NCBI GenBank assembly: GCA_036270155.1
Contig: DATBDB010000169.1
Coordinates: 4,316-68,315 of the forward strand
DNA: 64,000 nucleotides
Direction: 5' to 3'
Source: Gaiellaceae bacterium
GTDB lineage: Bacteria; Actinomycetota; Thermoleophilia; Gaiellales; Gaiellaceae
The notes beneath the pieces are model-generated. The model had not been told where the DNA came from. It ran no database searches and saw nothing but the letters and a program-made list of their open reading frames with translations. Positions 1,089 through 19,540 of this stretch are shown here, piece after piece; position 1 is the stretch's first letter, and each line of letters starts with the position of its first letter. A program made the translations under genes and the position numbers.

Positions 1089-1414
1089 CGAGCGCGATCG
1101 TCGACACCGTCGAGCGGCACGCGGCCGGCCGGCCGGTGAGCGTGATCACGATGCGCGTCGGCGCGCTGCGGCAGGTCGTGCCGGACTCGCTCGAGCTCTA
1201 CGTCGACCTGGTCGGCCGCGGCACCGTTTGCGACGGCGCTCGCCTCGACGTCGAGGTCGTGCCGGCGCGGCTTGCCTGCTGCGGCAATGAGTGGGAGCCG
1301 CCGAGCTTCCGCTGCCCGTCCTGCGGGAGCGGCGGCACGGTCGTCAGCGGCGACGAGTTTCTCGTCGAGTCCATCCAGGTCCAGGAGGTTGAGCCATGCA
1401 TCGCACGTACGTAA
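1070..1414 (+). CDS. hypA: hydrogenase nickel-insertion protein HypA
   Basis: MHELSLA N-terminus and a C-terminal CPSCG zinc-ribbon motif, at HypA-typical length (114 aa). GTG start overlaps the protease gene. Confidence 0.9.
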   Translation: MHELSLASAIVDTVERHAAGRPVSVITMRVGALRQVVPDSLELYVDLVGRGTVCDGARLDVEVVPARLACCGNEWEPPSFRCPSCGSGGTVVSGDEFLVESIQVQEVEPCIART

Positions 1415-3176: not shown

Positions 3177-4189
3177 GCCGCTGGGCCCGCACGCTCGACC
3201 GGCGTGAATGGCTGCGCCTCTCCGGTTTCGCCGGTGCCGTCGGTGCGCTGCACGTCGCGGGGTGGGGCCTCTTCGTCTACTACTCGCGCAGCCAGCCCGC
3301 GCTCGCAGGGCTCGGCACGCTCGCGTACTCGTTCGGGCTGCGGCACGCCTTCGACGCAGATCACATCGCGGCGATCGACAACACAACGCGCAAGTTCCTG
3401 CAGCAAGGGAAGCGCCCGCTCGGTGTGGGCTTCTTCTTCTCGCTCGGCCACTCGACGATCGTCTTTGCGCTCGTCGCTGCGCTGGCGCTCGGGACGACAA
3501 CCGTGGGCGCAGCCGTCCCGGGGCTGCACGGCTACGGGAGCTACGTCGGCCCCGGTGTCTCGGGAACGTTCCTCTGGATCATCGGCGTGCTCAACCTGAT
3601 CGTGCTCGTCGACATCGTTCGCATCTTTCGCGAGCTCCAGAGCGGGCGCTACGACCGCGAGCGGCTCGAAGAGCGACTGCTCGACCGGGGTTTCATGAAC
3701 CGGTTCTTCGTCGGTCGGTTCTTTCGGTTGATCGACCGGTCGTGGCACATGTACCCGCTCGGCGTCCTGTTCGGGCTCGGCTTCGACACCGCGACCGAGA
3801 TCGGGCTGCTCGCAATCGCGGCCGGAGTCGCGACGAACCAGGTTCCGTTGCTCGCGATCATGGCGCTGCCGTTGCTGTTCGCGGCGGGGATGTCGCTGAT
3901 GGACACCGCCGACGGCGCCTTCATGAGCCAGGCCTACGGCTGGGCGTTCTCGAACCCGGTCCGGAAGGTCTACTACAACATCACCGTCACGAGCCTCTCG
4001 GTTGCGGTCGCGCTCTTTGTCGGTTCGATCGAGCTGTTGCAGGTGGTGGGCTGGCGGAACGCTCCGGACTTCGAGCGACTCGGATACGCGATCGTCGCGC
4101 TCTTCGCGCTCACGTGGGCCGCATCGGTGGCGATCTGGAAGGGCCGCAGGATCGAAGAGCGCTGGTGCGGGACCATCGACACTCGGTGA
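3173..4189 (+). CDS. hoxN: NiCoT-family nickel/cobalt permease (HoxN/HupN/NixA type)
   Basis: Signature RHAFDADHIAAIDN and LGHSTIV, multi-TM profile, ATGA overlap with the SIS gene. Confidence 0.9.
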   Translation: MSRWARTLDRREWLRLSGFAGAVGALHVAGWGLFVYYSRSQPALAGLGTLAYSFGLRHAFDADHIAAIDNTTRKFLQQGKRPLGVGFFFSLGHSTIVFALVAALALGTTTVGAAVPGLHGYGSYVGPGVSGTFLWIIGVLNLIVLVDIVRIFRELQSGRYDRERLEERLLDRGFMNRFFVGRFFRLIDRSWHMYPLGVLFGLGFDTATEIGLLAIAAGVATNQVPLLAIMALPLLFAAGMSLMDTADGAFMSQAYGWAFSNPVRKVYYNITVTSLSVAVALFVGSIELLQVVGWRNAPDFERLGYAIVALFALTWAASVAIWKGRRIEERWCGTIDTR

Positions 4190-4260: not shown

Positions 4261-4412
4261 AGTCGAGCCGGCGTTCCGCGTCCGGCCCCCCATGTCAATC
4301 GCCTCAAGGAGAGTTTGGCGACAAGGGAGAGGCTCGCGCGCGAACCTAACGGCAGTCTGAGCGCTACCTAGGAATCCCCTCAGGAAGCGTCAGTTCACAA
4401 CTCGCTCTCAGG

Positions 4413-4757
4413 ATGCACCGGCAGCCTGGAAACATGGAGGTACTCCACTACGCAGACGTCGTCCTCGACGAGCGCCGCCGCGAAGTCTCACGGGGCGGCC
4501 GCAGGATCGAGCTGACGGCGACTGAGTACTCACTGCTGCGGTACTTCTTGCAACATCCGCGTCGCGTCGTATCCAAGCCGCAGCTCCTGCGGGAGGTCTG
4601 GCGGTACGAGCAAGGCGGCAGCGTGAATCTGGTCGAGACGTACGTGAGCTACCTCCGGCGGAAGCTGGAGCGCGACGGGCCGCCGTTGATCATCACCGTG
4701 CGCCAGTCGGGATACATGCTCGACGCCGGCGACGAGTCGAGGCCGGCACCGCCGTAG
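4413..4757 (+). CDS. stand-alone OmpR/PhoB-type winged-helix DNA-binding domain with no receiver; possible gene remnant
   Basis: LTATEYSLLRYFLQHPRRVVSKPQLLREVW and VETYVSYLRRKL match the Trans_reg_C pattern. There is no room for a receiver between hoxN and this ORF. Confidence 0.6.
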   Translation: MHRQPGNMEVLHYADVVLDERRREVSRGGRRIELTATEYSLLRYFLQHPRRVVSKPQLLREVWRYEQGGSVNLVETYVSYLRRKLERDGPPLIITVRQSGYMLDAGDESRPAPP

Positions 4758-4789
4758 ACCCCTTTTGCGACGTTTTTAGACCGTTGTTT

Positions 4790-5407
4790 TTAAACCGTGC
4801 CTGCGCGGCGCTCGCGGTCGAGCAGCCAGCGAGTGGCTTGCGTCCGGTTCGTCACCCGAAGCTTGCGATAGACGTTCGTGAGGTGGAACTTCACGGTCGG
4901 CTCGGAGACCCACAGCTTCATCGCGATCTCTCGGTTCGAAAGTCCGGTTGCGACTGCTTCGAGCACTTCCAGCTCGCGCGGCGAGAGGTCGAGCGTCTGC
5001 GCGGAATCATGATCCAACGGGGGCGGCGCGATCGTGTGAAACGCTGTGTGCTGGACAGCGTTCCGGATTGCCGTACCGAGGTCGCGCGGATCGATCGTGG
5101 TGAACACCACACCGCTTGCGCCGTGCCGGACAGCGGCGCGGATCTCGACCGGGTCTGTCACATCCGACAGCACGACAACCGCCACGGAGGGATAGGCCGT
5201 CCGGATGCGATCGACACTGGCCAGGCCCTCCAGTCCAGGTGTCCCCAAGTCGAGCAGAATCACGTCTGGGTGGCGCGCCGCGATCAGCTCCATCAACTCG
5301 GCACCGTGGTTCGCGACGCCGACGACCTCGAAATCGCCGTCGCGCGCGAGCACCTCACGTGCACCGGCAATGAGCAGGGGTCGATCGTTGGTGATGAGGA
5401 TCTTCAT
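4790..5407 (-). CDS. NarL/LuxR-family response regulator (conserved receiver Lys replaced by Thr)
   Basis: Receiver with LLDLGTPGLEG, and a C-terminal LSPRELEVL...SEPTVKFHLTNVYRKL HTH. FTTIDP occupies the place of the usual K-containing motif. Confidence 0.85.
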   Translation of the reverse strand: MKILITNDRPLLIAGAREVLARDGDFEVVGVANHGAELMELIAARHPDVILLDLGTPGLEGLASVDRIRTAYPSVAVVVLSDVTDPVEIRAAVRHGASGVVFTTIDPRDLGTAIRNAVQHTAFHTIAPPPLDHDSAQTLDLSPRELEVLEAVATGLSNREIAMKLWVSEPTVKFHLTNVYRKLRVTNRTQATRWLLDRERRAGTV

Positions 5408-5649
5408 GCAGCAGCAGCTTTTGGAGTTCGCCCTTTAGAACTTCGCCCGCCAAGAGGTTCCCCACACCGTATGGTCGAGGAGGGCCGAGCCTCCTAGTCG
5501 CACGTCGAGACGGAGGCCGCCGTGCCGCTAGTTCTCCGCCGCGTCAAACGGCTGATGCTGCACGTTTCGGTTGGGTGGCCCCAGCCGTTCGGCCTGTCAG
5601 TTCGTCCGACCTTCGTCCACACGCAGCCGTGGCCGGCGGGAGATTCCGT

Positions 5650-5835
5650 CTAGCGGGAGATCCGTCTGCCGCAGTTCGGGCAGATGAGCTGCTCGGGGAG
5701 CGGGCCGTTTGCCGGGAGCCCGATGGCCCGTCGACAAGCAGGGCACGGAATGAAAACGGCTACGCCCGGTCGCAACTTCGGCTTCGTCGCCATGCCGGAC
5801 ACCATGACAGGTTGCGCGGCTACCGTTTGGTGCAA
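5650..5835 (-). CDS. MJ0042-like CPxC...CPxC zinc-ribbon miniprotein (start uncertain: TTG 5835 or internal ATGs)
   Basis: IPCPACRRAI...LICPNCGRRISR. A paralogue with the same layout lies at 17956..18147. Confidence 0.55.
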   Translation of the reverse strand: MHQTVAAQPVMVSGMATKPKLRPGVAVFIPCPACRRAIGLPANGPLPEQLICPNCGRRISR

Positions 5836-5923
5836 GTTTTGACGATCTTCCGGTGCGCACTTTGCGCACTTTCAGCACGCGAGCTGCGTCGTGTCCGTGA
5901 GTTGTCCAAGGCGCGGTGCGCTC

Positions 5924-6559
5924 TTACGACGCTAGGTCGGCGGTGCGCTCCGCGACGAACCCCTGCGAGAACGCCCAGCGCGCGGCTTCGGTTCGATTGG
6001 AGACGTTCAGCTTCCGATAGATGTTGGTCAGGTGGAACTTCACCGTTTGCTCGGTCACCCAGAGCTCCTTGCCGATCGCCTGGCTCGAGAGCCCGCGAGC
6101 GACTGCCTTGACGATCTCGATCTCGCGCTCGGTGAGGCCGGCCAGCCGTGCCGAGGTGTCTTCGTTGAGTGCAGGAAGGCCGAAGGCGTGGTACGCGGTG
6201 CCGTCGACGGCCTGCCGGATCGCGGAGGTGAGGTCGTTGGCGTCGATGCTCTTGAGCACGTAGCCGCAGGCGCCACGCTTGAATGCAGCCTGGATCTGTT
6301 CGGGCTCCGCGCACATCGACAGCACGACGACCTTCAGCTTCGGATGGCGCGCGCGGACGCGTTCGAGGCAAGCGAGCCCGTCGAGTCCGGGCATCCGGAG
6401 GTCGAGGAGCAGGAGGTCGGGGTGGAGCCGTGAGACGAGCGGGAGAACCTCCGGTCCGTACCGGGCCTCGCCGATCACGTCGAACCCCTCTTCTCGACCC
6501 AGCAGGTCTCTCACGCCTGCAAGGAACAGTGGATGGTCGTCTGCAATCAATACATTCAT
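5924..6559 (-). CDS. NarL/LuxR-family response regulator (canonical)
   Basis: ADDHPL, LLLLDLRMPGLDG and YVLKS receiver motifs. LTEREIEIV...TEQTVKFHLTNIYRKL HTH. Confidence 0.9.
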   Translation of the reverse strand: MNVLIADDHPLFLAGVRDLLGREEGFDVIGEARYGPEVLPLVSRLHPDLLLLDLRMPGLDGLACLERVRARHPKLKVVVLSMCAEPEQIQAAFKRGACGYVLKSIDANDLTSAIRQAVDGTAYHAFGLPALNEDTSARLAGLTEREIEIVKAVARGLSSQAIGKELWVTEQTVKFHLTNIYRKLNVSNRTEAARWAFSQGFVAERTADLAS

Positions 6560-6684
6560 GCTGCGCCCCTCTATCCGTCAGTGAGTCGTGGGAGAGCGAA
6601 CCTATGAGGTTGTACTGACAGGTGTGACGGACAAAGGTCTAGGTCCTGCTCGACCAAGGACTCGATCCTGCACAAGGGGGTGGA

Positions 6685-7464
6685 TTGAGCAGACGCGAAA
6701 CCGGTATAGCGTCAGCTATGAGTGAAGAGCGAGGCAGTTTGCTGGTCGCCCGCGCCCTCGCGGCATCGACGAGTGACCCGCGCACGGCGACGGTCATCAC
6801 CGAGGTCTGCGACGAGCTGGAGGCCTTGCTCGAGACACAGGCGACCATTGGTTTCGACTTGCACGATGGACCTTTGCAGTCGCTCGCCGCGGTTCGCCTG
6901 GATCTCGAGCTCTTCCGCTCGCAGATCGCGGGTCTGACCGTCGGGGCCGCGGCGGATGTTCCGCTGCTCGGCCGGGTTGCCGATATCGGGGCGCGCCTCT
7001 CCGCCCTTGAGGCGGAGCTGCGAGACGTCGCCGTTGGGGCCATGGACGATCCCGGTGCCGTTTCGCTGACAGTGCTGATCGCGGAGCTCGCCTTCGAAGC
7101 CGCTGGCGAGCTCAGGGTCGAGCTCCGGCTCGATCCTGAGCTCGATCGACTCACGCTGGCCGAGCCGCAGCGGCTTGCGCTTGCACGGGTGGTCGGCGCC
7201 GCCGTGGCGAACGCGGCGCGGCACAGTGGTGCGCCGCTCATCGTCGTCACGGCGCAACTGCTGTCCGACTCCATCGAGGTCGAAGTTGTCGATACGGGCG
7301 CGGGCTTCGACCTGGCCGGCGCGGCGGCTCGGGCCAACCGCGAGGGTCGGCTCGGCCTGGTCGGGATGAAGGAGCGTATGCGCAGGCTCGGCGGAGAACT
7401 GCGAGTCAGGAGTGCAGTGGGCGAAGGAACGTCGGTTCGCGCGCGGTTGCCGCTCAGTAGCTAG
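6685..7464 (+). CDS. soluble HisKA_3-type sensor histidine kinase (start TTG 6685 or ATG 6719)
   Basis: H-box FDLHDGPLQSL, N-box ANAARHSGA, DTGAGF and GLVGMKERM. No TM segment. Divergent from the response regulator at 5924..6559. Confidence 0.8.
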   Translation: MSRRETGIASAMSEERGSLLVARALAASTSDPRTATVITEVCDELEALLETQATIGFDLHDGPLQSLAAVRLDLELFRSQIAGLTVGAAADVPLLGRVADIGARLSALEAELRDVAVGAMDDPGAVSLTVLIAELAFEAAGELRVELRLDPELDRLTLAEPQRLALARVVGAAVANAARHSGAPLIVVTAQLLSDSIEVEVVDTGAGFDLAGAAARANREGRLGLVGMKERMRRLGGELRVRSAVGEGTSVRARLPLSS

Positions 7465-7564
7465 AGCGGCATCGGCCGACGACCGGGACCATACGTTCGT
7501 CGTTGCGACTCCTGGCCGGGCGTGCGCCGAAGCCGCCGGTTTCACGCTCTAGCGTCGATGAGCG

Positions 7565-8722
7565 ATGGCAGAGGGATACGAAACCGCGGTGCTGATCGCG
7601 TGCAAGAACGGCGAGGCGACGATCGGGAACACCGTTCGCTCTGCAGTTGGCCAAGCCGACGTCTACGTCGTGTCCGACGGTTCCACCGACCGCACCTGCG
7701 AGGTCGCCGAAGCAATGGGAGCGCACGTGCTCGAGCTCACGACGAGCAGCGGCAAGCCGGTGGCCCTGCGAGCCGGCAACGACCGATTCGCGCTCGCTGC
7801 GCGCTATCGCCGGATCGCCGTGCTCGACGACGACACAACGATGGAGCCGAGATACATCGCGCGGCTCGAGAAGAGGATGGACTCGGACCCGCGCATCGCT
7901 GCGGCATCAGGGCGCATCGACTCGCTCTGGGATCACACGCGCCGCTGGAACCCGTTCATTGCCATGCGCGCGTTCACCTACTGGTCGTACCAGGTCACCG
8001 TCAAGCGCGGACAGAACGCGCTCCGTGTCGTGAACGTGATCTGCGGCGCGAACACACTCTTCCGTTCGGATGTGTTCGCGCAGTTGATCCGGGACGACGT
8101 CCCGTACGCCGTTGACGACATGTACTGGGTGGCCGAGATCGTCCGCCGCAAGCTCGGGCGCGTCGAATACGTTCCCGCCGCGCGCTCCTGGACGATCGAT
8201 CCGCATCGCTTTCGCGATTGGTACCGGCAGACGGTGCGCTGGTCCTGGGCGCAGTTCCAGTCCATCCGCGGCCATCGATTCGGGCGCCCGCTCGAGCGCA
8301 CGCGCGGGCGGGGTGTCGGCGTGCGTGTCTCTGGCTTCGACCTTGCCTACCTCGCGCTGATGTTGGACTGGATTCCGTACATGCTCGAACCGTTTGTGCT
8401 TCCTCCCGTTGCGTTCTTCCTCCGCGACTGGATCGACCCTCTGTGGTTCGGCATCTTCTACCTCGCCTCGAGCGTGGGCTGGATCGCCATCGCGGCGGCA
8501 GCCCTGCGAAAGCCGCGGCTGGTTGTGCTCGCTCCGGTTCTCATCGTGCTCGATCTCGTGTATCGCGCTTGCATGCTGCACGCCTTCGTCAAAACCCTGG
8601 TGACACCGAAGATCGAAAGTTGCACGTGGGTCTCGCCGCCGCGCTTCGCGCTCGAGACCGCTCCACCGACGGTCGCCGCTTCGGCCGCGCAACCAGTCAA
8701 ACCACCTCGACAAGGAGAATGA
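7565..8722 (+). CDS. processive family-2 glycosyltransferase (PgaC/NodC/cellulose-synthase-like) with a C-terminal TM bundle
   Basis: VSDGSTD, LDDD and QTVRWSW (QxxRW) motifs. Hydrophobic C-terminal third. Confidence 0.85.
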   Translation: MAEGYETAVLIACKNGEATIGNTVRSAVGQADVYVVSDGSTDRTCEVAEAMGAHVLELTTSSGKPVALRAGNDRFALAARYRRIAVLDDDTTMEPRYIARLEKRMDSDPRIAAASGRIDSLWDHTRRWNPFIAMRAFTYWSYQVTVKRGQNALRVVNVICGANTLFRSDVFAQLIRDDVPYAVDDMYWVAEIVRRKLGRVEYVPAARSWTIDPHRFRDWYRQTVRWSWAQFQSIRGHRFGRPLERTRGRGVGVRVSGFDLAYLALMLDWIPYMLEPFVLPPVAFFLRDWIDPLWFGIFYLASSVGWIAIAAAALRKPRLVVLAPVLIVLDLVYRACMLHAFVKTLVTPKIESCTWVSPPRFALETAPPTVAASAAQPVKPPRQGE

Positions 8723-9726
8723 CCGTGAAGGCATTGTTGACCGGGGGCGCCGGCTTCATCGGCTCCCACCTCTCTGAGTTGCTGCTCGAAAACGATGACG
8801 AGGTCTACGTGCTCGACGATCTGTCGACCGGATCGGTTGAGAACGTCAGCCATCTGCTCGACCGTCCGGGGTTCCACCTTGTCGTCGACAGCGTGTTGCA
8901 TCCTGCGGTTGTCTGCGAGCTCGTCCACAAGGTCGACGTCGTCTATCACCTTGCTGCAGCTGTCGGCGTGAAGACGATCGTGGAGCAGCCGGTCCGAACG
9001 TTGCACGTGAATCTCAAAGGCACAGAGACGGTTGTCGATGCGTGCTCGAAATTCGACAAGCCGGTCCTGATTGCGTCCACGTCGGAGGTGTACGGCGACC
9101 ACCGCACGGAGACGCCGCTGCGGGAGGATGCACGGCGGATCTATGGATCCACGACGCAGAAGCGTTGGGCGTACGCGGACTCGAAGGCGATGGACGAGTT
9201 CCTCGGGCTTGCCTACCACGAGGAGCACGCGCTCCAGACGGTGATCGTCCGCTTGTTCAACACGGTCGGGCCGAGGCAGACAGGCATGTACGGGATGGTC
9301 GTCCCGCGGTTCGTGGAACGCGCCCTGCGCGACGACGTGATCGAGATCTACGGCGACGGACTGCAAACCCGCTGCTTCTGTCATGTGAGCGACACCATCC
9401 GCGCTCTCCGCGATTTGATGGCCGATATCGATCGCACGACCGGCCAGATCTACAACGTCGGGGCGCCGAACCAGATCAGCGTGATCGGACTTGCCGAGCG
9501 GATCAAGCTGATGACCGGCTCGGGCTCGCCCACCGTTCACGTGCCATTCGCGGAGGTCTACGGCTCCGGCATCGACGACATGCTTCATCGCGTTCCGTGC
9601 GTCGACAAGGTGCGCGACGCGATCGGGTGGCTCCCGATGCGCACGCTCGAGGACATCCTTCGCGACGTGATCGAGCATGCAACCGCGCCGGTCGCGGCCG
9701 GCGTACCTGCGGAGATCGCGGCCTGA
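8719..9726 (+). CDS. NAD-dependent nucleotide-sugar epimerase/dehydratase (extended SDR)
   Basis: TGGAGFIGSHL, STSEVYG and YADSK. ATG at 8719 overlaps the GT2 stop (ATGA). AAGGAG RBS. Confidence 0.85.
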   Translation: MTVKALLTGGAGFIGSHLSELLLENDDEVYVLDDLSTGSVENVSHLLDRPGFHLVVDSVLHPAVVCELVHKVDVVYHLAAAVGVKTIVEQPVRTLHVNLKGTETVVDACSKFDKPVLIASTSEVYGDHRTETPLREDARRIYGSTTQKRWAYADSKAMDEFLGLAYHEEHALQTVIVRLFNTVGPRQTGMYGMVVPRFVERALRDDVIEIYGDGLQTRCFCHVSDTIRALRDLMADIDRTTGQIYNVGAPNQISVIGLAERIKLMTGSGSPTVHVPFAEVYGSGIDDMLHRVPCVDKVRDAIGWLPMRTLEDILRDVIEHATAPVAAGVPAEIAA

Positions 9727-9748
9727 ACCGGCGTCGGTTCGCACTGAG

Positions 9749-11899
9749 ATGAGCTGCCGCCTGACCTTCGTGTGCATTGGCCTCTTCGCGGTCGTCGGCG
9801 CGGGCCCTGCACATGCCGCCATCCAGGTGGCGATCACAGCGCCTCTGGCGCAAGCGAACGTCGGGGACGTTGGCGCAATCGTTCCCGTCAAGATCGACGC
9901 GTCTGCCGACCAGGGGATCTTCGGCGTGCAGTTGCTTGTCGACGGAACCCCATACGGGTCACTCGACACGACGCAGGTGGATCTCTACCGGTACGAGATC
10001 GCGTGGAACACCGCCGGCCTGGCAGTGGGCGCGCACACGCTCACTGTGGTCGCGACGGACTGGTCGTCGGTCGGCGGTGGCATTCAACTTACGTCGAGCC
10101 CGGTGACGGTGGACGTCGGACCCTCATATCCGACGATTGCGCTGACGGCCCCCGTCCCGGGCTCATCCGTTCACGGATCGATCGCGATCCGCGCGACCCA
10201 GACGAGCGCGGTGCTTCCCGCGTCGGTCACGTACTCGGTCGACGGGCAGCCGCTCCCGTCCGAGATCTGGGACACCACCACGACGCCCGACGGCGTCCAT
10301 TCCGTCTCAGCGACCGTGACAGACGGACGCGGTAAGACCGCGACCGCGACTGCGCAGGTGACCGTCGCCAACACGCCGGTGAACCTGCCGATCTCAGCGG
10401 TGCGCATCAGCGCGCCCGGCGACTACACCTTCGCGACCAACCCGACAACCGTCGTGGTATCGAATGTGACCGGCGGCACAGCCCCCTTCACCGGTCGGCT
10501 GCTGGTCGATGGTGTGGCGACGTCGCTCGTGCCCAACATCGTCGGAAGCACCCTGACTTTCCAATGGAGCACCAACGCACTGGTGGCGGGGTCGCACACC
10601 CTCACAGTTGGCGTCAGCGACGCGAGCGCGCTGACGGCGACCTCGCCGCCAGTCCACATCACAGTTGACAACGCGCCGCCGGTCGCGGTCATGTATCAGC
10701 CGTTGCCGTTCGCCGTGACCAATGGGCCGACGACGCTGCAGGTGCACGCGTCCGACGGCTACGGCGTCAAGTCGGTGCAGTTCACAATCGACGGGTCGCC
10801 CGTCGGTCCGCTGCTGACGACACCGGGCGCACCGGGCTCCTACCTCTACTCGACCATCTTCGACACGGCGACGTTGGCGGCCGGCTCGCACGCCGTTTCG
10901 GCAACTGTCGTCGATAACGCCGGAAATATCACCACAGCGAACCCCGTGTCGATCATGACGGGACCGGTCCAGACCGTGCCGGTGCTGAACTACCACGGGA
11001 TCATCGGGCCGCTCGATGCGAGCCCCGACATCTATGACCAGACGCCGGCGCAAGCCGACCAGGAGCTCGCGTATCTGAAGACGAACGGCTATCAGTCGCT
11101 GACCGTCGAGCAATACCAATCCTGGCTCGCGACGGGCTCCCTCCCGGCCGGTCTCACGAAGCCGGTCCTGATCACGGTCGACGACGGTCTCACCGACCAG
11201 TTGGCCTGGGATCCCCTCTTGCAGAAGTACGGGCTCACGGCCGTCCTCTACGTCGTCACGGGCTTTGCCGACAACAACACGCCGGGCGCAGACGACCCCG
11301 TCTCGAACATGTCGTGGCAGCAGATCCAGACGCTGGCCGGGAACGGGCGCTGGCAGATCGGGTTCCACGCCGGTCGCTACGGTCACGGGGAGTTCAGCGA
11401 CCGCACGAACACCATCACGCTCGCACCCGGGCAAGTCCAGCGCTACTCCGCCGCTTGCGGGAGCTACTACAGCTGCCTCGGCACGATCACCACGACCACC
11501 GGGTCGGGAGCGACCCGGCAGGTGACCACCGCGGCCGAGACGGCCGCTCAGCTCCAGGCGCAGGTCGCTGCCGAGATCCAGGCGGGCCTCGCCGAGCTCA
11601 AGCAACAGGTCCCGAGCGCCAGCCTGGCTTCTTGGGCGTGTCCCTGGAACGATTGCGGTCAATGGACGACCTTCTACAACGACCCCAGCGGCGCGGTCCA
11701 GTCCTGGCTGCCCGGATTCGCCTCGTCGACGTTCCCGATCGTCTTCACGCAGACGAATCCCGTCACGTATGCGCTCGCCTCGGGCACCGTCGGTGCGCTG
11801 AACGGCTTCCACCGGCGCTACCGCTTCGAGGTCCACACGGACACGACGCTCGCCCAGTTTGCCGCCGCCCTCGATGACACGGCGTTCGCGAGGCCCTAA
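9749..11899 (+). CDS. secreted Ig-like-repeat protein with a C-terminal CE4/NodB-type polysaccharide deacetylase domain
   Basis: Signal peptide MSCRLTFVCIGLFAVVGAGPAHA. Several repeats of about 90 aa (AGSHTLTV/AGSHAVSATV). PVLNYHGI and VLITVDDGLTDQ. Paralogue at 14635..16845. Confidence 0.8.
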   Translation: MSCRLTFVCIGLFAVVGAGPAHAAIQVAITAPLAQANVGDVGAIVPVKIDASADQGIFGVQLLVDGTPYGSLDTTQVDLYRYEIAWNTAGLAVGAHTLTVVATDWSSVGGGIQLTSSPVTVDVGPSYPTIALTAPVPGSSVHGSIAIRATQTSAVLPASVTYSVDGQPLPSEIWDTTTTPDGVHSVSATVTDGRGKTATATAQVTVANTPVNLPISAVRISAPGDYTFATNPTTVVVSNVTGGTAPFTGRLLVDGVATSLVPNIVGSTLTFQWSTNALVAGSHTLTVGVSDASALTATSPPVHITVDNAPPVAVMYQPLPFAVTNGPTTLQVHASDGYGVKSVQFTIDGSPVGPLLTTPGAPGSYLYSTIFDTATLAAGSHAVSATVVDNAGNITTANPVSIMTGPVQTVPVLNYHGIIGPLDASPDIYDQTPAQADQELAYLKTNGYQSLTVEQYQSWLATGSLPAGLTKPVLITVDDGLTDQLAWDPLLQKYGLTAVLYVVTGFADNNTPGADDPVSNMSWQQIQTLAGNGRWQIGFHAGRYGHGEFSDRTNTITLAPGQVQRYSAACGSYYSCLGTITTTTGSGATRQVTTAAETAAQLQAQVAAEIQAGLAELKQQVPSASLASWACPWNDCGQWTTFYNDPSGAVQSWLPGFASSTFPIVFTQTNPVTYALASGTVGALNGFHRRYRFEVHTDTTLAQFAAALDDTAFARP

Positions 11900-11997
11900 G
11901 GTGAGCACGACGGTCGAACCGGTTCGCCGCGGAGGGATTGCGGAGGCCGCCGTGTGTCGATAAGTGGTCAGTGGGTGCGGTCTCTCGGAGGGGATGA

Positions 11998-12678
11998 GTG
12001 GTCATGGCGTCCGGCATAACACGCCGAATCCGCATCCTGCTCGCGGACGACCATCCGTTGTTCCTTGTCGGCGTGCGCGCGACGCTCGAGGCGGATGGCG
12101 GCTTCGAGGTTGTCGGTGAGGCCCATTCCGGCCCGGAGGTGCTCCCTCTCGCCGGGCGCTCGCAGCCCGACGTGGTCCTGCTCGACATCGTCATGCCCGG
12201 CATCGACGGCCTTGGCTGCCTCGATCGCCTGCGGGATCGCTATCCGGAGATCATCGTCGTGATGTTCGCCGACGTCGCCGATCCTGGGCAGATCAATGCG
12301 GCCTTCGTGCGAGGGGCCAAGGGCTTCATCGTGAAGAGCGTGCGGGTGGCCGATTTCTCGGTTGCGATCCGGCAGATCATCGAAGGAACCGCGTATCAGG
12401 CGCTCGGCATGCCCGTGTTGAGCCCGGAGACGGTGGCTTCGGACGCAGGCCTGACGACGCGCGAGCTGGAGATCCTCCGGCGACTGATCCATGGGCTTTC
12501 GAACAAGGACATCGCTGCCGAGTTGTCGATCGCGGAACAGACGGTGAAGTTCCACCTGACGAGCCTCTACCGCAAGCTCGGAATCAGGAGCCGCACGCAG
12601 GCCGCTCGGTGGGCGCACGAGAACGGGATTCACCCGGGGGACCCGCCGGCCAGCCCGGTGGCGCCGCTGTCGAGGTAG
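11998..12678 (+). CDS. NarL/LuxR-family response regulator (canonical)
   Basis: ADDHPL, VLLDIVMPGIDG and FIVKS. LTTRELEIL...AEQTVKFHLTSLYRKL. Confidence 0.9.
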   Translation: MVMASGITRRIRILLADDHPLFLVGVRATLEADGGFEVVGEAHSGPEVLPLAGRSQPDVVLLDIVMPGIDGLGCLDRLRDRYPEIIVVMFADVADPGQINAAFVRGAKGFIVKSVRVADFSVAIRQIIEGTAYQALGMPVLSPETVASDAGLTTRELEILRRLIHGLSNKDIAAELSIAEQTVKFHLTSLYRKLGIRSRTQAARWAHENGIHPGDPPASPVAPLSR

Positions 12679-12827
12679 GGCGGCTGGCGTAAGCGCCAGG
12701 TGGGCCAGACCTCTGGGCGGTGGCCCCTGGACCTTCCTGTGGCTTGACTGTCTAGCGGTCGCCGTCGGTCGACGCTCGACCGAACTCGACCGAATCCTGC
12801 CATCCCCGCACAGGAGGTCTGCTGCCC

Positions 12828-13727
12828 GTGGTTCGCAGAGACTATTCGGCTGGTCCCACGTCCCGGCGCTACCCGCTTGCGCGCACACGGACGTCCCCGC
12901 TTCGGCTCGCACTGGCCATCGTCTCCTCACTGGTCGCCGCTACAGCGCTTGCCGCAGCCGGCCATACGTCTCCGACGACGACTTCGCCGGACGGCTCGAG
13001 CGCCTATCCGATGCACACCGGGATCGTCGGGACGACCTTCTGGGTCGGTGAGATCTTCAACGCGAACGCCGCCGACGGCTCCCAGGTCTGTTCGACCTAC
13101 GACTCCAACTGGGCGCTGCACTGGTCGGGCGGCGTCAACCAGGGCGCGTCGGCTCCCGGCACCGACTGCGCGGGCGCGCCTTACGGCGGCTGCGACGGCG
13201 TCCCGAGGGGAACGGGCGCCTCGTTCACGTGCACAACGGAGGCGCGGACCTCCGGCAACGGCAACTTCCCGACGAGTGCGTCGGTCCATCCGGCGGAGAA
13301 CCCCTTCTACCTGGATCTTCCCTACGACGACGTCAACGATGCGGCGGCGTTCGCCCAGCGTTGCAGCACGATCCCGTGGGCGTCGCAATATCCGGCCTCG
13401 TCCTGCCAGGACCCTCATTTCTCCTACATGAAGAACCATTGGGTGAAGCTCATCGGGGAGAACGGCAGCGTCTGTTACGGCCAGATCGAGGACGCCGGGC
13501 CGTTCACCTACAACGACACCACGTACGTCTTCGGCTCGGGAGACGCACGTCCGCAATCGGCCCAGGCGAATAACGCCGGCCTCGACGTGTCGCCTGCTGT
13601 CAACGGCTGCCTCGGCTTCAAGGAGCTCGACGGCGACACCGACAAGGTCTCCTGGCAATTCGTCGACGCATCACAGGTGCCGACAGGCCCCTGGACGCAG
13701 ATCGTCACGACGCGCGGCGTCTCCTAG
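12828..13727 (+). CDS. secreted protein of unknown family; the C-terminal half looks like a DPBB/RlpA-type barrel (inference)
   Basis: Signal peptide. Blocks conserved with the paralogue at 17011..17781: TxFWxGE, ENPFYLDxPY, PWAS, MKNxWVK, VCYGQxEDAGP, NAGxDVSPA, GPW..VTT. Confidence 0.7.
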   Translation: MVRRDYSAGPTSRRYPLARTRTSPLRLALAIVSSLVAATALAAAGHTSPTTTSPDGSSAYPMHTGIVGTTFWVGEIFNANAADGSQVCSTYDSNWALHWSGGVNQGASAPGTDCAGAPYGGCDGVPRGTGASFTCTTEARTSGNGNFPTSASVHPAENPFYLDLPYDDVNDAAAFAQRCSTIPWASQYPASSCQDPHFSYMKNHWVKLIGENGSVCYGQIEDAGPFTYNDTTYVFGSGDARPQSAQANNAGLDVSPAVNGCLGFKELDGDTDKVSWQFVDASQVPTGPWTQIVTTRGVS

Positions 13728-13983
13728 CCCGCGGTCCGCGATCGCCCCGTCGCCGCCCTACGGCGACAAGGCGATGCGGATCTGCAATGACCCTCGCCGA
13801 ACGTGTTTTCGCAGGCGTGAATGCGAAATAGCTGCCCTAGAAAACGAGCTTCGACCAGGTGGTTCACCGCTGCGGGCACCCGGCGAAGCGTGGACGTGGA
13901 GGTGATGAACAGGAGCTGCGCTCGACCTTCGATGTTGGACCGGGGGGTCGAAGGATGGTTCCGATCTCGGGCGCAGGCCGGCA

Positions 13984-14526
13984 GTGTTGTCCATTGCTGA
14001 GAGGGAGGTCAAGCCGGTGAGTAGTTCTCGGTCACGGCATGGCGAGGTTGAGAGTGAGCCCGCACGTGCGTCGCGCGACAGGCTGCTGAGGATCATGGTG
14101 GTCGACGATCAATGGATCCGCCGGGTCGCTGTTGCGGCCGCCCTGAAGGCAGATACCAGTCTCGAGATTGTGGGAGAGGTTCCATGCGGCTCCGACGTTC
14201 TGTCGCTCACGCGGTCGGCGGCACCGGATGTCGTCCTCCTCGGGACGCGCATCCCGAACCAGGACGGCCTCGGCTGTCTCTCGCTGCTGCGTGAGTGCCA
14301 TCCCGAGGTAAAGGTCGTCGTCTTCTCGGCCTCGGCTGATCTCGATCACGTCGAGGACGTGTTTCGCCTGGGAGCGTCCGGCTGCATTCTTTCGACGATT
14401 GCCCCCCTCGAGCTTGCAGCTGCGATTCGCAGGATCGTTGAAGCAGCCGAGTATCAGGCGAGCGCGCCGTTCCACAAGAGTGCGCCCGCGCACCTGTCGG
14501 GACTGGAGGCTCGAGAGCTGAACTGA
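13984..14526 (+). CDS. degenerate NarL-type receiver with truncated HTH; pseudo-receiver or pseudogene (start may be ATG 14095)
   Basis: VVDDQ pocket is kept, but VVLLGTRIPNQDG has Gly at the phospho-Asp position and ILSTI has no Lys. The ORF stops at LEARELN, where paralogues begin the HTH. Confidence 0.6.
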   Translation: MLSIAEREVKPVSSSRSRHGEVESEPARASRDRLLRIMVVDDQWIRRVAVAAALKADTSLEIVGEVPCGSDVLSLTRSAAPDVVLLGTRIPNQDGLGCLSLLRECHPEVKVVVFSASADLDHVEDVFRLGASGCILSTIAPLELAAAIRRIVEAAEYQASAPFHKSAPAHLSGLEARELN

Positions 14527-14634
14527 GCCGATTTCGGACGGTGGTGCACACGGCGCGTTCTTAGACGTTTGTCAGGTGGCTTCCCACTCGCGGGACTGGA
14601 CCCGCGCGACAGATGTCCGGCAAGGATCGCAGGC

Positions 14635-16845
<2,211 letters not shown>

Positions 16846-16854
16846 CCCGCGGTC

Positions 16855-17052
16855 TCAGGGCCAGAAGACTTGTCGCGTGGTGACGACGCGGCGCCCCAGC
16901 GGTACCGAGGGGACCGGGGCCGCCGAGGGCCGAGGACCTGTCGCGTGGTGACGAGCGGCGCCCAGCGAGAACCGAGCGATGCCTTTAGGGCCAGAAGACT
17001 TGTCGAGCCTTTAGGGCCAGAAGACTTGTCGCGTGGTGACGACGCGGCGCCA
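16855..17052. repeat. four direct copies (two good, two decayed) of the last ~40 nt of gene 17011..17781
   Basis: TCAGGGCCAGAAGACTTGTCGCGTGGTGACGACGCGGCGCC at 16855 and TTAGGGCCAGAAGACTTGTCGCGTGGTGACGACGCGGCGCC at 17011. A truncated copy lies at 16985-17006 and a diverged copy at 16927-16963. Confidence 0.9.
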
Positions 17053-17781
17053 GGGGCCGGGGGGAACCGCCGCCGCTTCGACGAATCGCCAGGAGAGCTT
17101 GTTCTCGTCGTTGTTCACGCCGGAGAACGCGAGACAGTCGCGGATTGCCGGGCTGACGTCCATGCCTGCGTTGTGCGCGAGACCGCTCGCCGGCCGCGCA
17201 TCGACACGAGAGAAGACGTAGTTGATGTCGTCGTAGACGTAGGGCCCGGCGTCCTCGACCTGTCCGTAGCAGACGCGCATCCGGCCGCCGGCAACGCGCC
17301 ACATCTTCACCCAGCGGTTCTTCATGAGCGAGAACGGTTTCCCCGTCTTTGCCGACTGCGCGAGCTGCGCCGCGTAGCGACTCGCCCACGGGACCGCCGT
17401 GCGATCGGCGCGCGGTTTCCCGTTGTCGGCGAAGTCGCTATAGGGCACGTCGAGGTAAAACGGGTTCTCGCGCGGCGTGAACGGAGGGAAATAGGGGAAG
17501 CGGCGCACAGACCGGTAGTCGTCGAACCCGCCGTAGTGCGCCTTCCACTTATCGTCATACGCAGAGAGTGCGTTGTCCTCCGACGAGCCATTGCCAACCG
17601 GCTCGCCGATCCAGAAGACCGTCGCCGTGATGTTCGAATGCACGGGATAGCTCACCGTGCTGTCGCGGGTGTGCGGAGCACCGAGTGCGGACGCGCTGCC
17701 TGTTGCCGCCGCAGCAGCAGCAGCGATTCCAAGGATCCGTGCACGACCGCGTGTCACCCCACGACCTTTGCCACCTTGCAC
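17011..17781 (-). CDS. secreted protein of unknown family, paralogue of 12828..13727
   Basis: Ala-rich signal-like N-terminus (RILGIAAAAAAATGSASALG). Same conserved blocks as the paralogue, ending VVTTRQVFWP. Confidence 0.75.
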   Translation of the reverse strand: MQGGKGRGVTRGRARILGIAAAAAAATGSASALGAPHTRDSTVSYPVHSNITATVFWIGEPVGNGSSEDNALSAYDDKWKAHYGGFDDYRSVRRFPYFPPFTPRENPFYLDVPYSDFADNGKPRADRTAVPWASRYAAQLAQSAKTGKPFSLMKNRWVKMWRVAGGRMRVCYGQVEDAGPYVYDDINYVFSRVDARPASGLAHNAGMDVSPAIRDCLAFSGVNNDENKLSWRFVEAAAVPPGPWRRVVTTRQVFWP

Positions 17782-17955
17782 GGGTCAGAAACCAGAAGGT
17801 CAGAGAACCTAGACGAACGTCCTAGAGGACACCGCGTCGCACTATTGAAGTCGATTGCATGACGCACCCCGGTGATGGTCTAATGGTGCTCGCGGCAGAG
17901 GGCCCGGAACGGCGGCGCCCTCATCGTTCTCGAGCAAAGGGTTGGTTGGTCAGCG

Positions 17956-18147
17956 GTGAATAACGAACGTCGAGCGGACGCCGGGCACCGGCCGGGGGCG
18001 CCGCGCCTGGTCGAGGACACCGACGGTGTTGCGAACCTCTACATCCCGTGCCCGGCTTGTCGCGCGCCGATCGCAGTCGACCGGCCGTTGGCGGCGTTGC
18101 CGCTGACGCTCACCTGCCCGGCGTGCTCCGCGGTCCTCGCCCGCTAG
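17956..18147 (+). CDS. MJ0042-like CPxC...CPxC zinc-ribbon miniprotein, paralogue of 5650..5835
   Basis: IPCPACRAPI...LTCPACSAVLAR at the C-terminus. Confidence 0.55.
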   Translation: MNNERRADAGHRPGAPRLVEDTDGVANLYIPCPACRAPIAVDRPLAALPLTLTCPACSAVLAR

Positions 18148-18470
18148 CGGGCTACTCCTTGACGAAAGCCCCACGGTCTCTCGACCTCCGGAGGGCCTGG
18201 CTGCGCGCGCGGGTTCGTACAGTCCGCGTATGCCCATCGTTAACCAATGCACGGTGCCCGGGTGTGCGACCCTCACCATGGGCGTTCGCTGCCTCGAGCA
18301 TGAACTTCCCGACTTCTTGTTCTTGTCGGCTGGCCGCCGCCCGCGGCGGCAACCGCGCGTAGCCCACCGCGCGAGGACTTTCGGCTAAAGCTTCGCAGGC
18401 GAGGGGGCCTGCGTTGACACTCGCCGTGGCCGCCGCCGCAAGCGGCTTCGGTGAGAGGGGCGATGAACAT

Positions 18471-18505
18471 AACGCGGTCGCGCAATGCCCTCGCGCGACC
18501 GCGTT
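18471..18505. other. perfect 13-bp stem hairpin in a long intergenic region
   Basis: AACGCGGTCGCGC / GCGCGACCGCGTT with a 9-nt loop. No clear U-tract on the plus strand. Confidence 0.4.
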
Positions 18506-18672
18506 CGCCTGCCGCCCCAAGGTCCACGTAGGACGAGTCGCTGGTCGAGGTGCGACCAGCCGATCGCATGGGGTGGAGCCTCGTGCTCGACCGAAGAATC
18601 AGCCATACCGGATCGAGCGATTCGAGGCAGTCGGCGGCTGCAACTCCCGCCCAAATCAAGCAAGGAGCATCA

Positions 18673-18816
18673 ATGAGCAACATCCAGGTCGCCGGCGCAC
18701 GGGCCCTTCCATTCACCGGACTCGCGACGCTCCCGATCCTGCTGATCGGAGCTGCGATCAGCCTCATCGGATTCGTGCTGATGATCCTCCGGCCGAAGCC
18801 GGCTCGTTCGCACTAG
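18673..18816 (+). CDS. 47-aa miniprotein that is essentially a bare LPXTG-type sorting signal (LPFTG + TM + basic tail)
   Basis: AAGGAG RBS at 18662-18667, ATG at 18673. MSNIQVAGARA-LPFTG-LATLPILLIGAAISLIGFVLMIL-RPKPARSH. The TAG stop directly abuts the sortase GTG. Confidence 0.65.
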   Translation: MSNIQVAGARALPFTGLATLPILLIGAAISLIGFVLMILRPKPARSH

Positions 18817-19509
18817 GTGCGACGCAAGGTCGGTTTCGCGCTACTCGTCTTCGGCCTGAGCGTGCTGGCTTGGGCGGGTGTATCGCTGCGCTGGGGCGAC
18901 CCACTCACCTCGATCTACACAGCACACGAGCAGCGCGTGCTTGCCGGGCAACTCGCGAAGGAGCAGCGCAGCTGGCTTGCGTCACCGGTTCGCGCACGTG
19001 CCCTGGTTGACAAATCGGCCACGGTAAGCGCGGCTCGGATCATCAAGCTTCGCGCGCAGCGGTTCGCGCTGAGGCTCCACGACGGCGCGCCGATCGGGCG
19101 AATCGTCATTCCCAAACTCGGGTTGAACATGATCGTCGTCGAAGGAACATCGGAGAGAGATCTCGCGAAGGGACCCGGTCATTACAACGCCGCATCGGGC
19201 GTAGCCACGGCGCTCCCCGGCACCGGCGGTGTCGTTGCCATTGCTGGGCATCGCACGACGTTCCTGCATCCATTCCGCTACGTCGACCGGCTGCGTTCCG
19301 GCGACAACGTCTATCTCGAGATGCCCTACGGCACGCTGCGCTATCGGATCTACTTCCGGAAGATCGTCGCTGCGACCGACTGGTCGATTCTCGGCGGGCG
19401 TCCGTACGAGAAGCTCGTGTTGAGCGCATGCCACCCGCTGTACTCGGCGACCCATCGCATCGTGATCTTCGCGCGGCTCGCCGGCGCATCGACGAAGAGC
19501 AGCCTGTGA
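18817..19509 (+). CDS. sortase (class E-like transpeptidase)
   Basis: N-terminal TM segment, AIAGHRTT (His), LVLSACHP (catalytic Cys) and THRIVIFARL (Arg). Confidence 0.85.
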   Translation: MRRKVGFALLVFGLSVLAWAGVSLRWGDPLTSIYTAHEQRVLAGQLAKEQRSWLASPVRARALVDKSATVSAARIIKLRAQRFALRLHDGAPIGRIVIPKLGLNMIVVEGTSERDLAKGPGHYNAASGVATALPGTGGVVAIAGHRTTFLHPFRYVDRLRSGDNVYLEMPYGTLRYRIYFRKIVAATDWSILGGRPYEKLVLSACHPLYSATHRIVIFARLAGASTKSSL

Positions 19510-19540
19510 GGCAGCTAGCTTCCCGCGCACACCTGCCCGC

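Follow-up and report, generated by a model that had tools for sequence, protein, structure and literature searches.

The gene cluster at ~4790 to 19509 of a 64,000-nucleotide stretch of Gaiellaceae bacterium DNA (assembly GCA_036270155.1, contig DATBDB010000169.1, positions 4,316 to 68,315; below, the window) probably directs the synthase-dependent production of a partly de-N-acetylated amino-sugar polysaccharide that is secreted or associated with the wall. An initial annotation, made from the sequence alone, had read it as a synthase-dependent exopolysaccharide locus with the logic of poly-N-acetylglucosamine (PNAG; Pga/Ica) or NodBC systems and with one kinase serving up to four receivers; our analysis retains the synthase type, the glycan-associated fold of the accessory proteins and the conserved co-localisation, and departs from it on the PNAG/NodBC framing and on regulation. 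The new features are a donor enzyme resembling the UDP-N-acetylxylosamine (UDP-XylNAc) synthase UXNAcS, a minimal synthase resembling hyaluronan synthase (HAS), PgaB-like deacetylases on immunoglobulin-like (Ig) stalks and a family of accessory proteins with a predicted double-psi beta-barrel (DPBB). The genes that carry this reading are, in window coordinates:

7565..8722, plus strand: GT2 processive-type synthase, 385 aa, matching Pfam Glycos_transf_2, Glyco_tranf_2_3 and Glyco_trans_2_3.
8719..9726, plus strand: extended short-chain dehydrogenase/reductase (SDR) of the UDP-uronic-acid decarboxylase type (UXS/ArnA/UXNAcS-like), typed by NCBIfam, PDB, motifs and BLASTP.
9749..11899, plus strand: BigCE4a, with a signal peptide, a Big_7 stalk and a C-terminal PgaB/IcaB/PplD-like CE4 domain at ~10949-11896.
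14635..16845, plus strand: BigCE4b, a membrane-anchored paralogue of BigCE4a with a Thr/Pro-rich linker, Ig-like domains and a CE4-like domain.
12828..13727, plus strand: DPBBa, a secreted protein with a predicted DPBB core and a Cys-rich insert.
17011..17781, minus strand: DPBBb, a divergent DPBBa paralogue without the Cys-rich insert.

The GT2 synthase is laid out as an N-terminal GT-A domain, an interface helix with QTVRW and three predicted C-terminal helices (residues 257-285, 292-313 and 323-346), the first of which bears invariant acidic residues; no N-terminal membrane helix is predicted. Its motifs are D38, D88-D90 (DxD), D184-D185 (DD) and Q222-T-V-R225-W226, the last lying in QTVRWSW at residues 222-228, and D38, D88, D90, D185, Q222, R225 and W226 are invariant in an alignment of 28 GT2 homologues that includes Arthrobacter and Nakamurella proteins of ~30% identity. 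Over 28-32 homologues, the D, DxD, DD and QxxRW motifs are likewise conserved throughout. Micrococcales homologues, which have an additional N-terminal segment, carry the motifs as DAD and IED. These conserved motifs are those of processive beta-glycan synthases. When the GT2 family profile was compared with the PDB, the matches were Chlorella virus HAS (2.7e-9) and chitin synthases (5e-8 to 1e-6), dolichol-P-mannose synthase (DPMS) appearing only at 0.013 and only over the N-terminal Rossmann part. With an AlphaFold2 model of the GT2 (predicted local distance difference test score, pLDDT, 79), the top 13 Foldseek matches were all HAS, the best being those of Chlorella virus and Xenopus (E 5e-15, template-modelling score, TM, 0.65-0.68, ~400 aligned columns), followed by the chitin synthase (Chs) Chs1 and by BcsA; DPMS-like PcManGT came at rank 30 (TM 0.53), and GtrB and ArnC were not in the top 50. 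The processive, membrane-embedded GT2 of the initial annotation is thus supported by invariant motifs, HAS/Chs profile matches and fold ranking. A dolichol-phosphate or GtrB-type identity was rejected for the same three reasons (motifs, profile and fold ranking).

These comparisons bear on an Arn-like lipid-carrier pathway, in which the dehydrogenase and the decarboxylase would make an unusual UDP-pentosamine, the GT2 would move a single sugar to polyprenyl phosphate in the manner of ArnC, PpgS or GtrB, the CE4 would deacylate as ArnD does and a wall polymer would be decorated. The GT2 is indeed short, with its membrane part C-terminal only as in DPMS/GtrB-type enzymes, and PpgS and DPMS give weak N-terminal matches to it; but the invariant QxxRW with the interface helix is a hallmark of processive synthases, and HAS, Chs and BcsA stand far above PcManGT in the fold ranking.

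As to the kind of processive synthase, PgaC_IcaA (TIGR03937) is the best NCBIfam match of the GT2, scoring 63.7 bits against a cut-off of 422.3 and over residues 7-227 only, and NodC (TIGR04242) reaches 34.2 bits against 550. These scores do not bear out the Pga/Ica or NodBC framing, and membership in the PgaC/IcaA, NodC, EpsD, AglJ and MdoH equivalogs was rejected since the scores are too low. In the interval 4300-19600, we found no Wzx/Wzy, ABC exporter, PgaD, PelD or BcsB family with Pfam or NCBIfam, in agreement with the initial annotation, and no PgaD/IcaD-like ORF or family match, an absence that is weak evidence given the poor conservation of such partners. Having three C-terminal and no N-terminal helices, the GT2 may require oligomerisation or a partner protein to form a channel. 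A tail motif, C-x-W-x-S-P-x-R-F, follows the last membrane helix (GT2 residues 353-361, window 8621-8647); its W, S, P and R do not vary, not even among the ~30%-identical Arthrobacter and Nakamurella homologues, model confidence is low there, and it could be a partner-binding or regulatory site.

The start of the SDR gene overlaps the GT2 stop codon by 4 bases, which marks the two genes as translationally coupled, to judge from the sequence. Its motifs (GGAGFIGS, STSEVYG, YADSK and RLFNTVGPRQ) read as a UDP-uronic-acid decarboxylase signature, unlike that of 4-epimerases. The best NCBIfam match is PRK11908, the UDP-4-keto-pentose/UDP-xylose synthase family (161.3 bits, cut-off 294), human UXS1 is the best PDB match (1e-46), ahead of ArnA decarboxylase domains (~1e-31 to 1e-34), and BLASTP gave 38.9% identity and 218 bits with Bacillus cereus UXNAcS as against 33.4% and 168 bits with human UXS1. 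The UXNAcS query was taken from the supplement of PMC5078965, where typing errors cause a frameshift that we bridged by joining two reading frames. The "SDR epimerase/dehydratase" of the initial annotation is therefore an SDR, as stated, and the PRK11908, UXS1 and UXNAcS matches replace the generic label by a decarboxylase type.

A UDP-uronic acid for such an enzyme would come from a UDP-sugar dehydrogenase. A UDPG_MGDP_dh gene lies inside the cluster in four related Gaiellales loci (L085, L013, L087 and L089; loci are numbered with L) and in Nakamurella and Arthrobacter, and GlmS is encoded within or beside the cluster in L001, L085 and L013. The relatives' dehydrogenase scores 270, 233 and 206 bits with UDP-ManNAc/GlcNAc dehydrogenase models versus 188 and 133 with UDP-glucose dehydrogenase models, shares 36-46% identity with the B. 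cereus UDP-GlcNAc 6-dehydrogenase, and is present in 37 of the 39 DPBB-centred loci (defined below) that have the SDR. The simplest reading would be that the synthase receives UDP-XylNAc made from UDP-N-acetylglucosamine (UDP-GlcNAc) by way of its uronic acid (UDP-GlcNAcA); the findings agree just as well with UDP-xylose or with a polymer that mixes GlcNAcA and XylNAc. The decarboxylase, together with the relatives' dehydrogenase and GlmS, thus points away from plain PNAG or chitin and toward a decarboxylated, pentose-type amino-sugar polymer. A tblastn search of the full 64-kb window found no GH18.

A PNAG-, chitin- or Pel-like system without any pentose-type sugar is the alternative most directly affected. 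Here the GT2 would polymerise UDP-GlcNAc, or UDP-N-acetylgalactosamine (UDP-GalNAc) made by the SDR as a PelX-like C4-epimerase, and the CE4 would partly de-N-acetylate the product. PelX (6wjb) does match the SDR at 2.7e-35, GlmS lies within or beside the relatives' cluster, a GH18 belongs to the Micrococcales cassette, homologues carry the source annotations 'PgaC' or 'PNAG synthase', PgaC_IcaA is the top NCBIfam family of the GT2, and the CE4 matches PgaB-N as well as, by profile, BpsB, PgaB and IcaB. We nevertheless judge it unlikely: the PgaC_IcaA and NodC scores are far below cut-off (63.7/422 and 34/550 bits), no PgaD/IcaD-like partner was found in 4300-19600, the SDR has the TSE motif of decarboxylases and dehydratases and resembles UXS1 and UXNAcS more than it does any epimerase, and a UDP-N-acetylhexosamine (UDP-HexNAc)-type 6-dehydrogenase, present in 37/39 SDR-bearing loci, would be useless to a plain GlcNAc or GalNAc polymer.

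Both Ig/CE4 proteins fit the deacetylation step of the amino-sugar polysaccharide system. BigCE4a has an N-terminal hydrophobic segment and three Big_7 domains (89 bits), with a weak Polysacc_deac_1 match (25 bits) and PgaB-N at 31 bits; BigCE4b, whose likely start is 14635 within the ORF 14569-16845, has a hydrophobic anchor, Big_13 and a weak PgaB-N match (36 bits), and the two are 51% identical over 515 aa. With the PgaB equivalog they reach 31-36 bits against a cut-off of 322, and their CE4 identity depends, beyond Pfam alone, on a profile search against solved structures. This profile, built from six Gaiellales sequences, matched streptococcal 6dq3 (PplD) at 2e-9, Bacillus BA0330/BC0361-type proteins at 8e-8 and BpsB/PgaB/IcaB at 4e-6 to 2e-3. 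These matches form the CE4 subgroup with permuted motif order. The invariant residues, which correspond to catalytic and metal residues, are H16 in the first strand (NYH), D78-D79 (VDDG), and H140 and H146 (FHAGxYGHG). Given the N-terminal signal or anchor and the Ig-like stalks, the CE4 domains should act outside the membrane. The corresponding slot of the Micrococcales cassette holds a CE4 of the classic NodB type, extended at its C-terminus, and this non-orthologous replacement argues that deacetylation is intrinsic to the system. The Thr/Pro-rich linker of BigCE4b is long (~15000-15400), with runs of TTTTTTTTTTTTP, a local GC peak of 0.71, a GC skew that is strongly negative, a positive AT skew, and a long spurious Val/Gly-rich ORF on the opposite strand.

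The placement of the CE4 domains bears again on the Arn-like pathway. Taken as a set, UDP-sugar dehydrogenase, ArnA-like decarboxylase (with the ArnA matches to the SDR given above), GT2 and CE4 mirror the well-known Ugd-ArnA-ArnC-ArnD series; yet the CE4 domains here are extracytoplasmic on Ig stalks, whereas ArnD acts at the cytoplasmic face, and none of the clusters yielded a GT-C transferase, a flippase or an aminotransferase. Together with the features of the GT2, this makes such a pathway highly improbable.

DPBBa, which has an export signal, and DPBBb (40% identity over 251 aa) are the two secreted unknowns of the initial annotation, which had supposed that accessory roles were taken by families it could not name. 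With E relaxed to 1, neither they nor 42 family members gave a match in Pfam, NCBIfam or PDB sequences. The protein collection contains more than 2,114 homologues, none of them named and none with precomputed Pfam domains save occasional fused Ig, PKD or dockerin modules. An AlphaFold2 model from 42 sequences (pLDDT 88.9) had significant Foldseek scores only with double-psi beta-barrel proteins, among them kiwellin, barwin, expansins, cerato-platanin, PA4485, MltA and RlpA-like phage proteins; the probability is 0.98-1.0 for kiwellin, PA4485 and RlpA-like proteins. The supposition thus finds support in secreted proteins without any family model, whose predicted fold is a glycan-associated one. 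The family has two invariant stretches, QIEDAGP and (L/M)DVSPA (LDVSPA in DPBBa), which we take to resemble the pair of motifs that mark barrels of the RlpA/expansin type. A link to GH75 chitosanases (V-Csn), whose structures cover the whole model with the highest TM (0.31-0.33), was set aside as a weak lead at E 0.1-0.2. DPBB genes 52-68% identical to the window copy occur in L014, L011, L015, L017 and L049, contigs labelled as Thermoplasmata archaeon, Chloroflexi, Myxococcales/Polyangiaceae and Caulobacterales metagenome-assembled genomes (MAGs), which are probably mis-binned actinobacterial contigs or cases of horizontal transfer.

Conservation of the neighbourhood was examined from both the DPBB and the GT2 side. 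A DPBB profile scan of one genome per species gave 347 loci, of which the best 79 were taken, 60 of them with at least 18 kb. Within 10 kb in these 60 loci there was a GT2 homologue in 44, a CE4 in 43, an SDR (44-51% identical) in 39, a dehydrogenase in 37, a GH18-like gene in 37 and a second DPBB in 35. The cassette also occurs in Herbiconiux, Curtobacterium, Allobranchiibius, Arsenicicoccus, Propionibacteriaceae, Nocardioidaceae, Mycobacteriales and Nakamurella. The GT2-centred comparison covered nine Gaiellales loci (the window, L001, L003, L085, L013 and L086-L089): GT2 and SDR are adjacent in 9/9, NarL-type regulators are near the GT2 in 9/9, an Ig/CE4 gene in 8/9 and a sortase with a sorting-signal mini-ORF (within 10 kb) in 7/9, a kinase lies upstream in 7/9, and a dehydrogenase is near in 4/9, GlmS in 3/9 and a zinc ribbon in 2/9 (the window and L003; also in DPBB-centred L009). 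The arrangement exceeds chance, as GT2 and SDR are adjacent in all nine loci and Ig/CE4 is present in eight. Of the neighbourhood that the initial annotation expected to be conserved, the core is so in related as well as distant Actinomycetota, the DPBB genes are partly so within Gaiellales, and the zinc ribbons are lineage-specific. None of a non-processive GT2, an unconserved neighbourhood or unknown proteins from families unrelated to glycans, each of which the initial annotation had held to speak against its reading, was found.

The same comparisons help to weigh the idea that CE4 and DPBB serve peptidoglycan remodelling, the former as a peptidoglycan deacetylase and the latter as a lytic transglycosylase like RlpA, sharing no more than regulation with an unrelated GT2 and SDR, the sortase marking a general wall locus. 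Wall-associated enzymes (6dq3, 4v33/4hd5) are among the closest solved CE4 relatives, RlpA and MltA are among the fold matches of DPBB, the sortase accompanies the cluster as a constant neighbour, and L088 and L089 have SpoIID-like genes in the vicinity. In several orders, however, DPBB, CE4 and GH18 are interleaved with GT2, SDR and dehydrogenase in one cassette; two CE4 subtypes occupy the same slot according to lineage, which argues that the deacetylase role belongs to the cassette; and in most Gaiellales loci the Ig/CE4 gene comes immediately after the SDR. We therefore regard this explanation as very unlikely.

The nearest public sequences are from Gaiellaceae/Gaiellales MAGs. L003 (GCA_025964395.1, a MAG contig) has ~90% DNA identity across the cluster and the same gene order with two differences: its first Ig/CE4 gene is reduced to 177 aa via seamless repeat-to-repeat junctions, and it is without the DPBBa gene, window 12784-13729 being precisely absent (L003 13767-13778). 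The shortened Ig/CE4 gene could reflect either real recombination or collapse in MAG assembly. A recurrent secreted protein of ~230 aa without Pfam or NCBIfam match, absent from the window, adjoins DPBB genes in L085 (6325-7014) and regulators in L086 (6764-7474) and may be another accessory protein.

Downstream of the second zinc ribbon, beyond the coordinates of the initial annotation, the cluster continues with two genes:

18673..18816, plus strand: mini-ORF of 47 aa that is a sorting signal only (LPFTG, hydrophobic helix, basic tail) and abuts the sortase start codon.
18817..19509, plus strand: sortase, best match class E (Pfam Sortase 87 bits; class_E_sortase 104.8 bits, cut-off 160).

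The mini-ORF has no family match. Its intact orthologues lie in L001 (5642-5782), L009 (18977-19123), L085 (L085/L010; 17630-17761), L086 (13055-13183), L087 (8977-9132) and L089 (4275-4415), and L088 has a tblastn match, always immediately 5' of the sortase gene and close to the GT2 cluster. Members of this family have 42-51 aa, with 8-14 residues preceding LPFTG, the hydrophobic helix and the basic tail, and no signal peptide; cleavage would leave a peptide of only ~10-15 residues for ligation. DPBBb orthologues (61-71% identity) are found ~1-3 kb from the sortase gene in L087, L088 and L089, and L009 has a 40% DPBB paralogue near its sortase. The sortase with its mini-ORF is a more constant neighbour than the zinc ribbons.

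The regulatory genes and the zinc-ribbon miniproteins are:

4790..5407, minus strand: RR1, an atypical NarL/LuxR-type regulator (Response_reg 64.6, GerE 77.8 bits).
5650..5805, minus strand: Zn1, a 51-aa zinc-ribbon miniprotein with CPxC...CPxC (third-position GC, GC3, 0.81; L003 orthologue 84% identical).
5924..6559, minus strand: RR2, a canonical NarL-type regulator (Response_reg 94.7, GerE 68.5 bits).
6685..7464, plus strand: soluble HisKA_3-type histidine kinase (HATPase_c 48.5 bits), likely start Met at 6718.
11998..12678, plus strand: RR3, a NarL-type regulator (Response_reg 77, GerE 78 bits).
13984..14526, plus strand: RECd, a degenerate receiver-only protein (Response_reg 62 bits) with no helix-turn-helix (HTH).
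17956..18147, plus strand: Zn2, a second zinc-ribbon miniprotein (GC3 0.86).

The kinase scores 19.5 bits with HisKA_3, below the 24-bit cut-off, has sub-threshold NCBIfam matches to the MctS, NarQ and UhpB kinase cores, and showed no hydrophobic window or membrane helix and no recognisable sensor domain by Pfam, NCBIfam and hydropathy. RR2 has complete phospho-acceptor residues and orthologues upstream of the kinase in L001, L003, L085, L013 and L086; RR3, 96% identical to its L003 orthologue, retains the acidic pair together with the phospho-Asp and the Lys. RR1 (92% identical to its L003 orthologue) has Asn-Asp for Asp-Asp and Thr for the conserved Lys, and RECd, conserved in L003 as a 180-aa, 83% identical orthologue, has Gly for the phospho-Asp and Ser for the Lys and ends just before the HTH position. 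The full regulators are ~42-55% identical to one another and ~31-40% to RECd. RR1 and RECd look like phosphorylation-independent modifiers. The kinase and the four receivers of the initial annotation are thus all present, but the alignment leaves only RR2 and RR3 as canonical, and a better statement would be one kinase with two likely substrates (RR2 and RR3) and two atypical modifiers.

Zn1 probably starts at 5805, because its L003 relative has a stop codon upstream of the Met, and the 5650-5835 of the initial annotation includes a probably untranslated 5' extension. All zinc-ribbon Pfam matches of Zn1 are sub-threshold. Zn1 and Zn2 share 45% identity over 40 aa and have all four Cys in common, and the Zn2 orthologue of L009 has the same position and all Cys. 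Among the loci scanned, zinc ribbons occur only in the window, L003 and L009, and are lineage-specific.

Long spurious ORFs are frequent in high-GC DNA, and genes were therefore chosen by third-position GC and families assigned with Pfam and NCBIfam. Regional GC is 0.64-0.71 and GC3 is 0.72-0.86 for every gene of the locus, a coding-type composition. All 13 genes of the initial annotation were recovered within ~65 bases of where it had placed them and in the families it had named, and pairwise identity supports the paralogy it described (deacetylase, secreted unknown and zinc ribbon each twice, receiver four times); most paralogue pairs are 40-55% identical, as for old paralogues with no recent duplication. 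Promoter and terminator consensus scans of 4300-19700 gave sites no more numerous than in shuffled sequence and are thus uninformative on operon structure. The flanks are unrelated housekeeping sets, a CobW/HypB-type GTPase and a NicO nickel transporter upstream (1396 to 4189) and Entner-Doudoroff genes (KDPG aldolase, phosphogluconate dehydratase) with glucose-6-phosphate dehydrogenase downstream (19541-23825), which places the cluster borders at ~4790 and 19509. Between the nickel transporter gene and the cluster, 4413-4757 on the plus strand encodes a 114-aa protein that is an OmpR/PhoB-type winged-helix domain alone (Trans_reg_C 87.8 bits), with no receiver.

Put together, the amino-sugar polysaccharide system might work as follows. 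The cytoplasmic SDR would decarboxylate a UDP-uronic acid, most likely UDP-GlcNAcA to UDP-XylNAc, and the UDP-HexNAc 6-dehydrogenase, in-cluster in relatives, would here have to be encoded outside the 64-kb window. The 385-aa GT2, by motifs and fold a minimal HAS/chitin synthase relative, would polymerise the donor or donors and, probably as an oligomer or together with a partner, let the growing chain pass between its C-terminal helices. Outside the membrane, the two Ig-stalked PgaB-like CE4 proteins, as their conserved residues suggest, would take off part of the N-acetyl groups, and the two secreted DPBB proteins, by fold and gene linkage only, may bind, loosen or cut the glycan, which is the role of hydrolases or lyases in other synthase-dependent systems. 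The sensor-less HisKA_3 kinase would act on two canonical NarL-type regulators, as DegS does on DegU, with one atypical regulator and one truncated pseudo-receiver as modifiers.

Several points weigh against this reading. Everything said here of the polymer product is drawn from the genes. The GT2 has fewer membrane helices than any solved synthase, the first of its C-terminal helices is weakly hydrophobic, and no partner protein was found at the locus. The SDR is under every NCBIfam equivalog cut-off and is also matched by PelX-type and GalE-type epimerases (1e-35 to 1e-29), and tblastn of the whole 64-kb window found neither a UDP-sugar dehydrogenase nor GlmS, so that the substrate of the decarboxylase is unaccounted for locally. 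The His pair of the CE4 domains is six residues apart, where the canonical HxxxH has four, and some of the closest solved CE4 relatives (BA0330/BC0361 type) are reportedly inactive. The TM-scores for the DPBB fold are low (0.2-0.4), because only the barrel core aligns, and the double-psi beta-barrel fold includes non-enzymatic proteins. A DPBB gene lies within 10 kb of the GT2 in 6/9 Gaiellales loci only, and most DPBB-centred Gaiellales loci have no GT2 nearby, because Gaiellales genomes hold several DPBB paralogues. Finally, the neighbourhood counts are dominated by Arthrobacter/Pseudarthrobacter, which are non-independent samples.

A more specific proposal is that the cassette makes an undescribed, partly de-N-acetylated, XylNAc-containing polymer (a 'pentose chitin/chitosan' or a copolymer of XylNAc and GlcNAcA) that would be widespread among soil Actinomycetota, Gaiellales and Arthrobacter marking its range, with DPBB as a dedicated glycanase or loosening factor and, in Gaiellales, the sortase and its mini-substrate tied in; we advance it tentatively, as a possibility that falls well short of probable. 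If a 2-acetamido-pentose is indeed in the polymer, abundant soil bacteria would have a structural or matrix glycan of a new type, and DPBB would be a new family of glycan-active enzymes; an ordinary PNAG/chitosan-like product would be of smaller value, as a variant from Gram-positive bacteria whose accessory proteins are new. Only a handful of synthase-dependent exopolysaccharides (cellulose, alginate, PNAG, Pel and hyaluronan) are well understood, and we know of almost no work on them in Actinomycetota. The cassette joins a very small HAS/chitin-synthase-like enzyme, a UXNAcS-like decarboxylase and a secreted family of >2,100 members without a model, and its span from uncultured Gaiellales to cultivable Arthrobacter makes it experimentally accessible. 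To our knowledge, the B. cereus UXNAcS is the only known UDP-XylNAc synthase. We found no published description of this cassette, in literature coverage that is incomplete and hence no proof of novelty; the Actinoplanes clusters described in PMC13390465 are of the Wzx/Wzy and GtrA type.

Among known systems, PNAG synthesis (PgaABCD in Escherichia coli, IcaADBC in staphylococci), whose general features are described in PMC7112194, is alike in a membrane GT2 with QxxRW, an extracytoplasmic CE4 predicted here to be of the PgaB/IcaB subgroup and the lack of Wzx/Wzy or an ABC exporter. It differs in that the locus shows no recognisable PgaD/IcaD, PgaA or IcaC, has an obligatory UXS/UXNAcS-like SDR and an Ig-repeat-stalked deacetylase, and has DPBB proteins in place of the C-terminal hydrolase domain of PgaB. 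The Arn pathway of lipid A likewise brings together a UDP-sugar dehydrogenase, an SDR decarboxylase, a GT2 and a CE4-fold deacylase; unlike it, the locus has a GT2 with QxxRW and a HAS-like fold and an extracytoplasmic CE4, and aminotransferase, formyltransferase, flippase and GT-C transferase are not at the locus. The UDP-XylNAc pathway of B. cereus is approached by the SDR (38.9% identity to UXNAcS) and by the relatives' dehydrogenase (36-46% to the UDP-GlcNAc 6-dehydrogenase), enzymes whose functions are described in PMC5078965, and a B. cereus XylNAc/GlcNAcA exopolysaccharide is mentioned in PMC8861577. The window differs in having no dehydrogenase, and the specificity of its SDR is predicted from sequence. 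We know of no single HAS-like synthase and no CE4 or DPBB partners for the Bacillus XylNAc polymer.

RlpA, expansins, kiwellin, barwin and cerato-platanin share with DPBBa and DPBBb the predicted core fold, secretion and a glycan context, whereas DPBBa and DPBBb have no Pfam DPBB match, are ~245 aa long with large elaborations and, in one subtype, have a Cys-rich insert. In regulation, the locus recalls DegS-DegU of B. subtilis by its sensor-less cytoplasmic HisKA_3-type kinase beside NarL-type regulators at an exopolymer locus, a likeness by analogy only; here there are three full regulators and a pseudo-receiver. By both profile and predicted fold, the closest solved relatives of the GT2 are class I HAS (Chlorella virus, vertebrate HAS1) and chitin synthases; these share only 13-17% identity with it, and HAS has six membrane helices as against three C-terminal and zero N-terminal ones in the 385 aa of the GT2, and they are single-polypeptide synthase-translocases for HexNAc-containing polymers.

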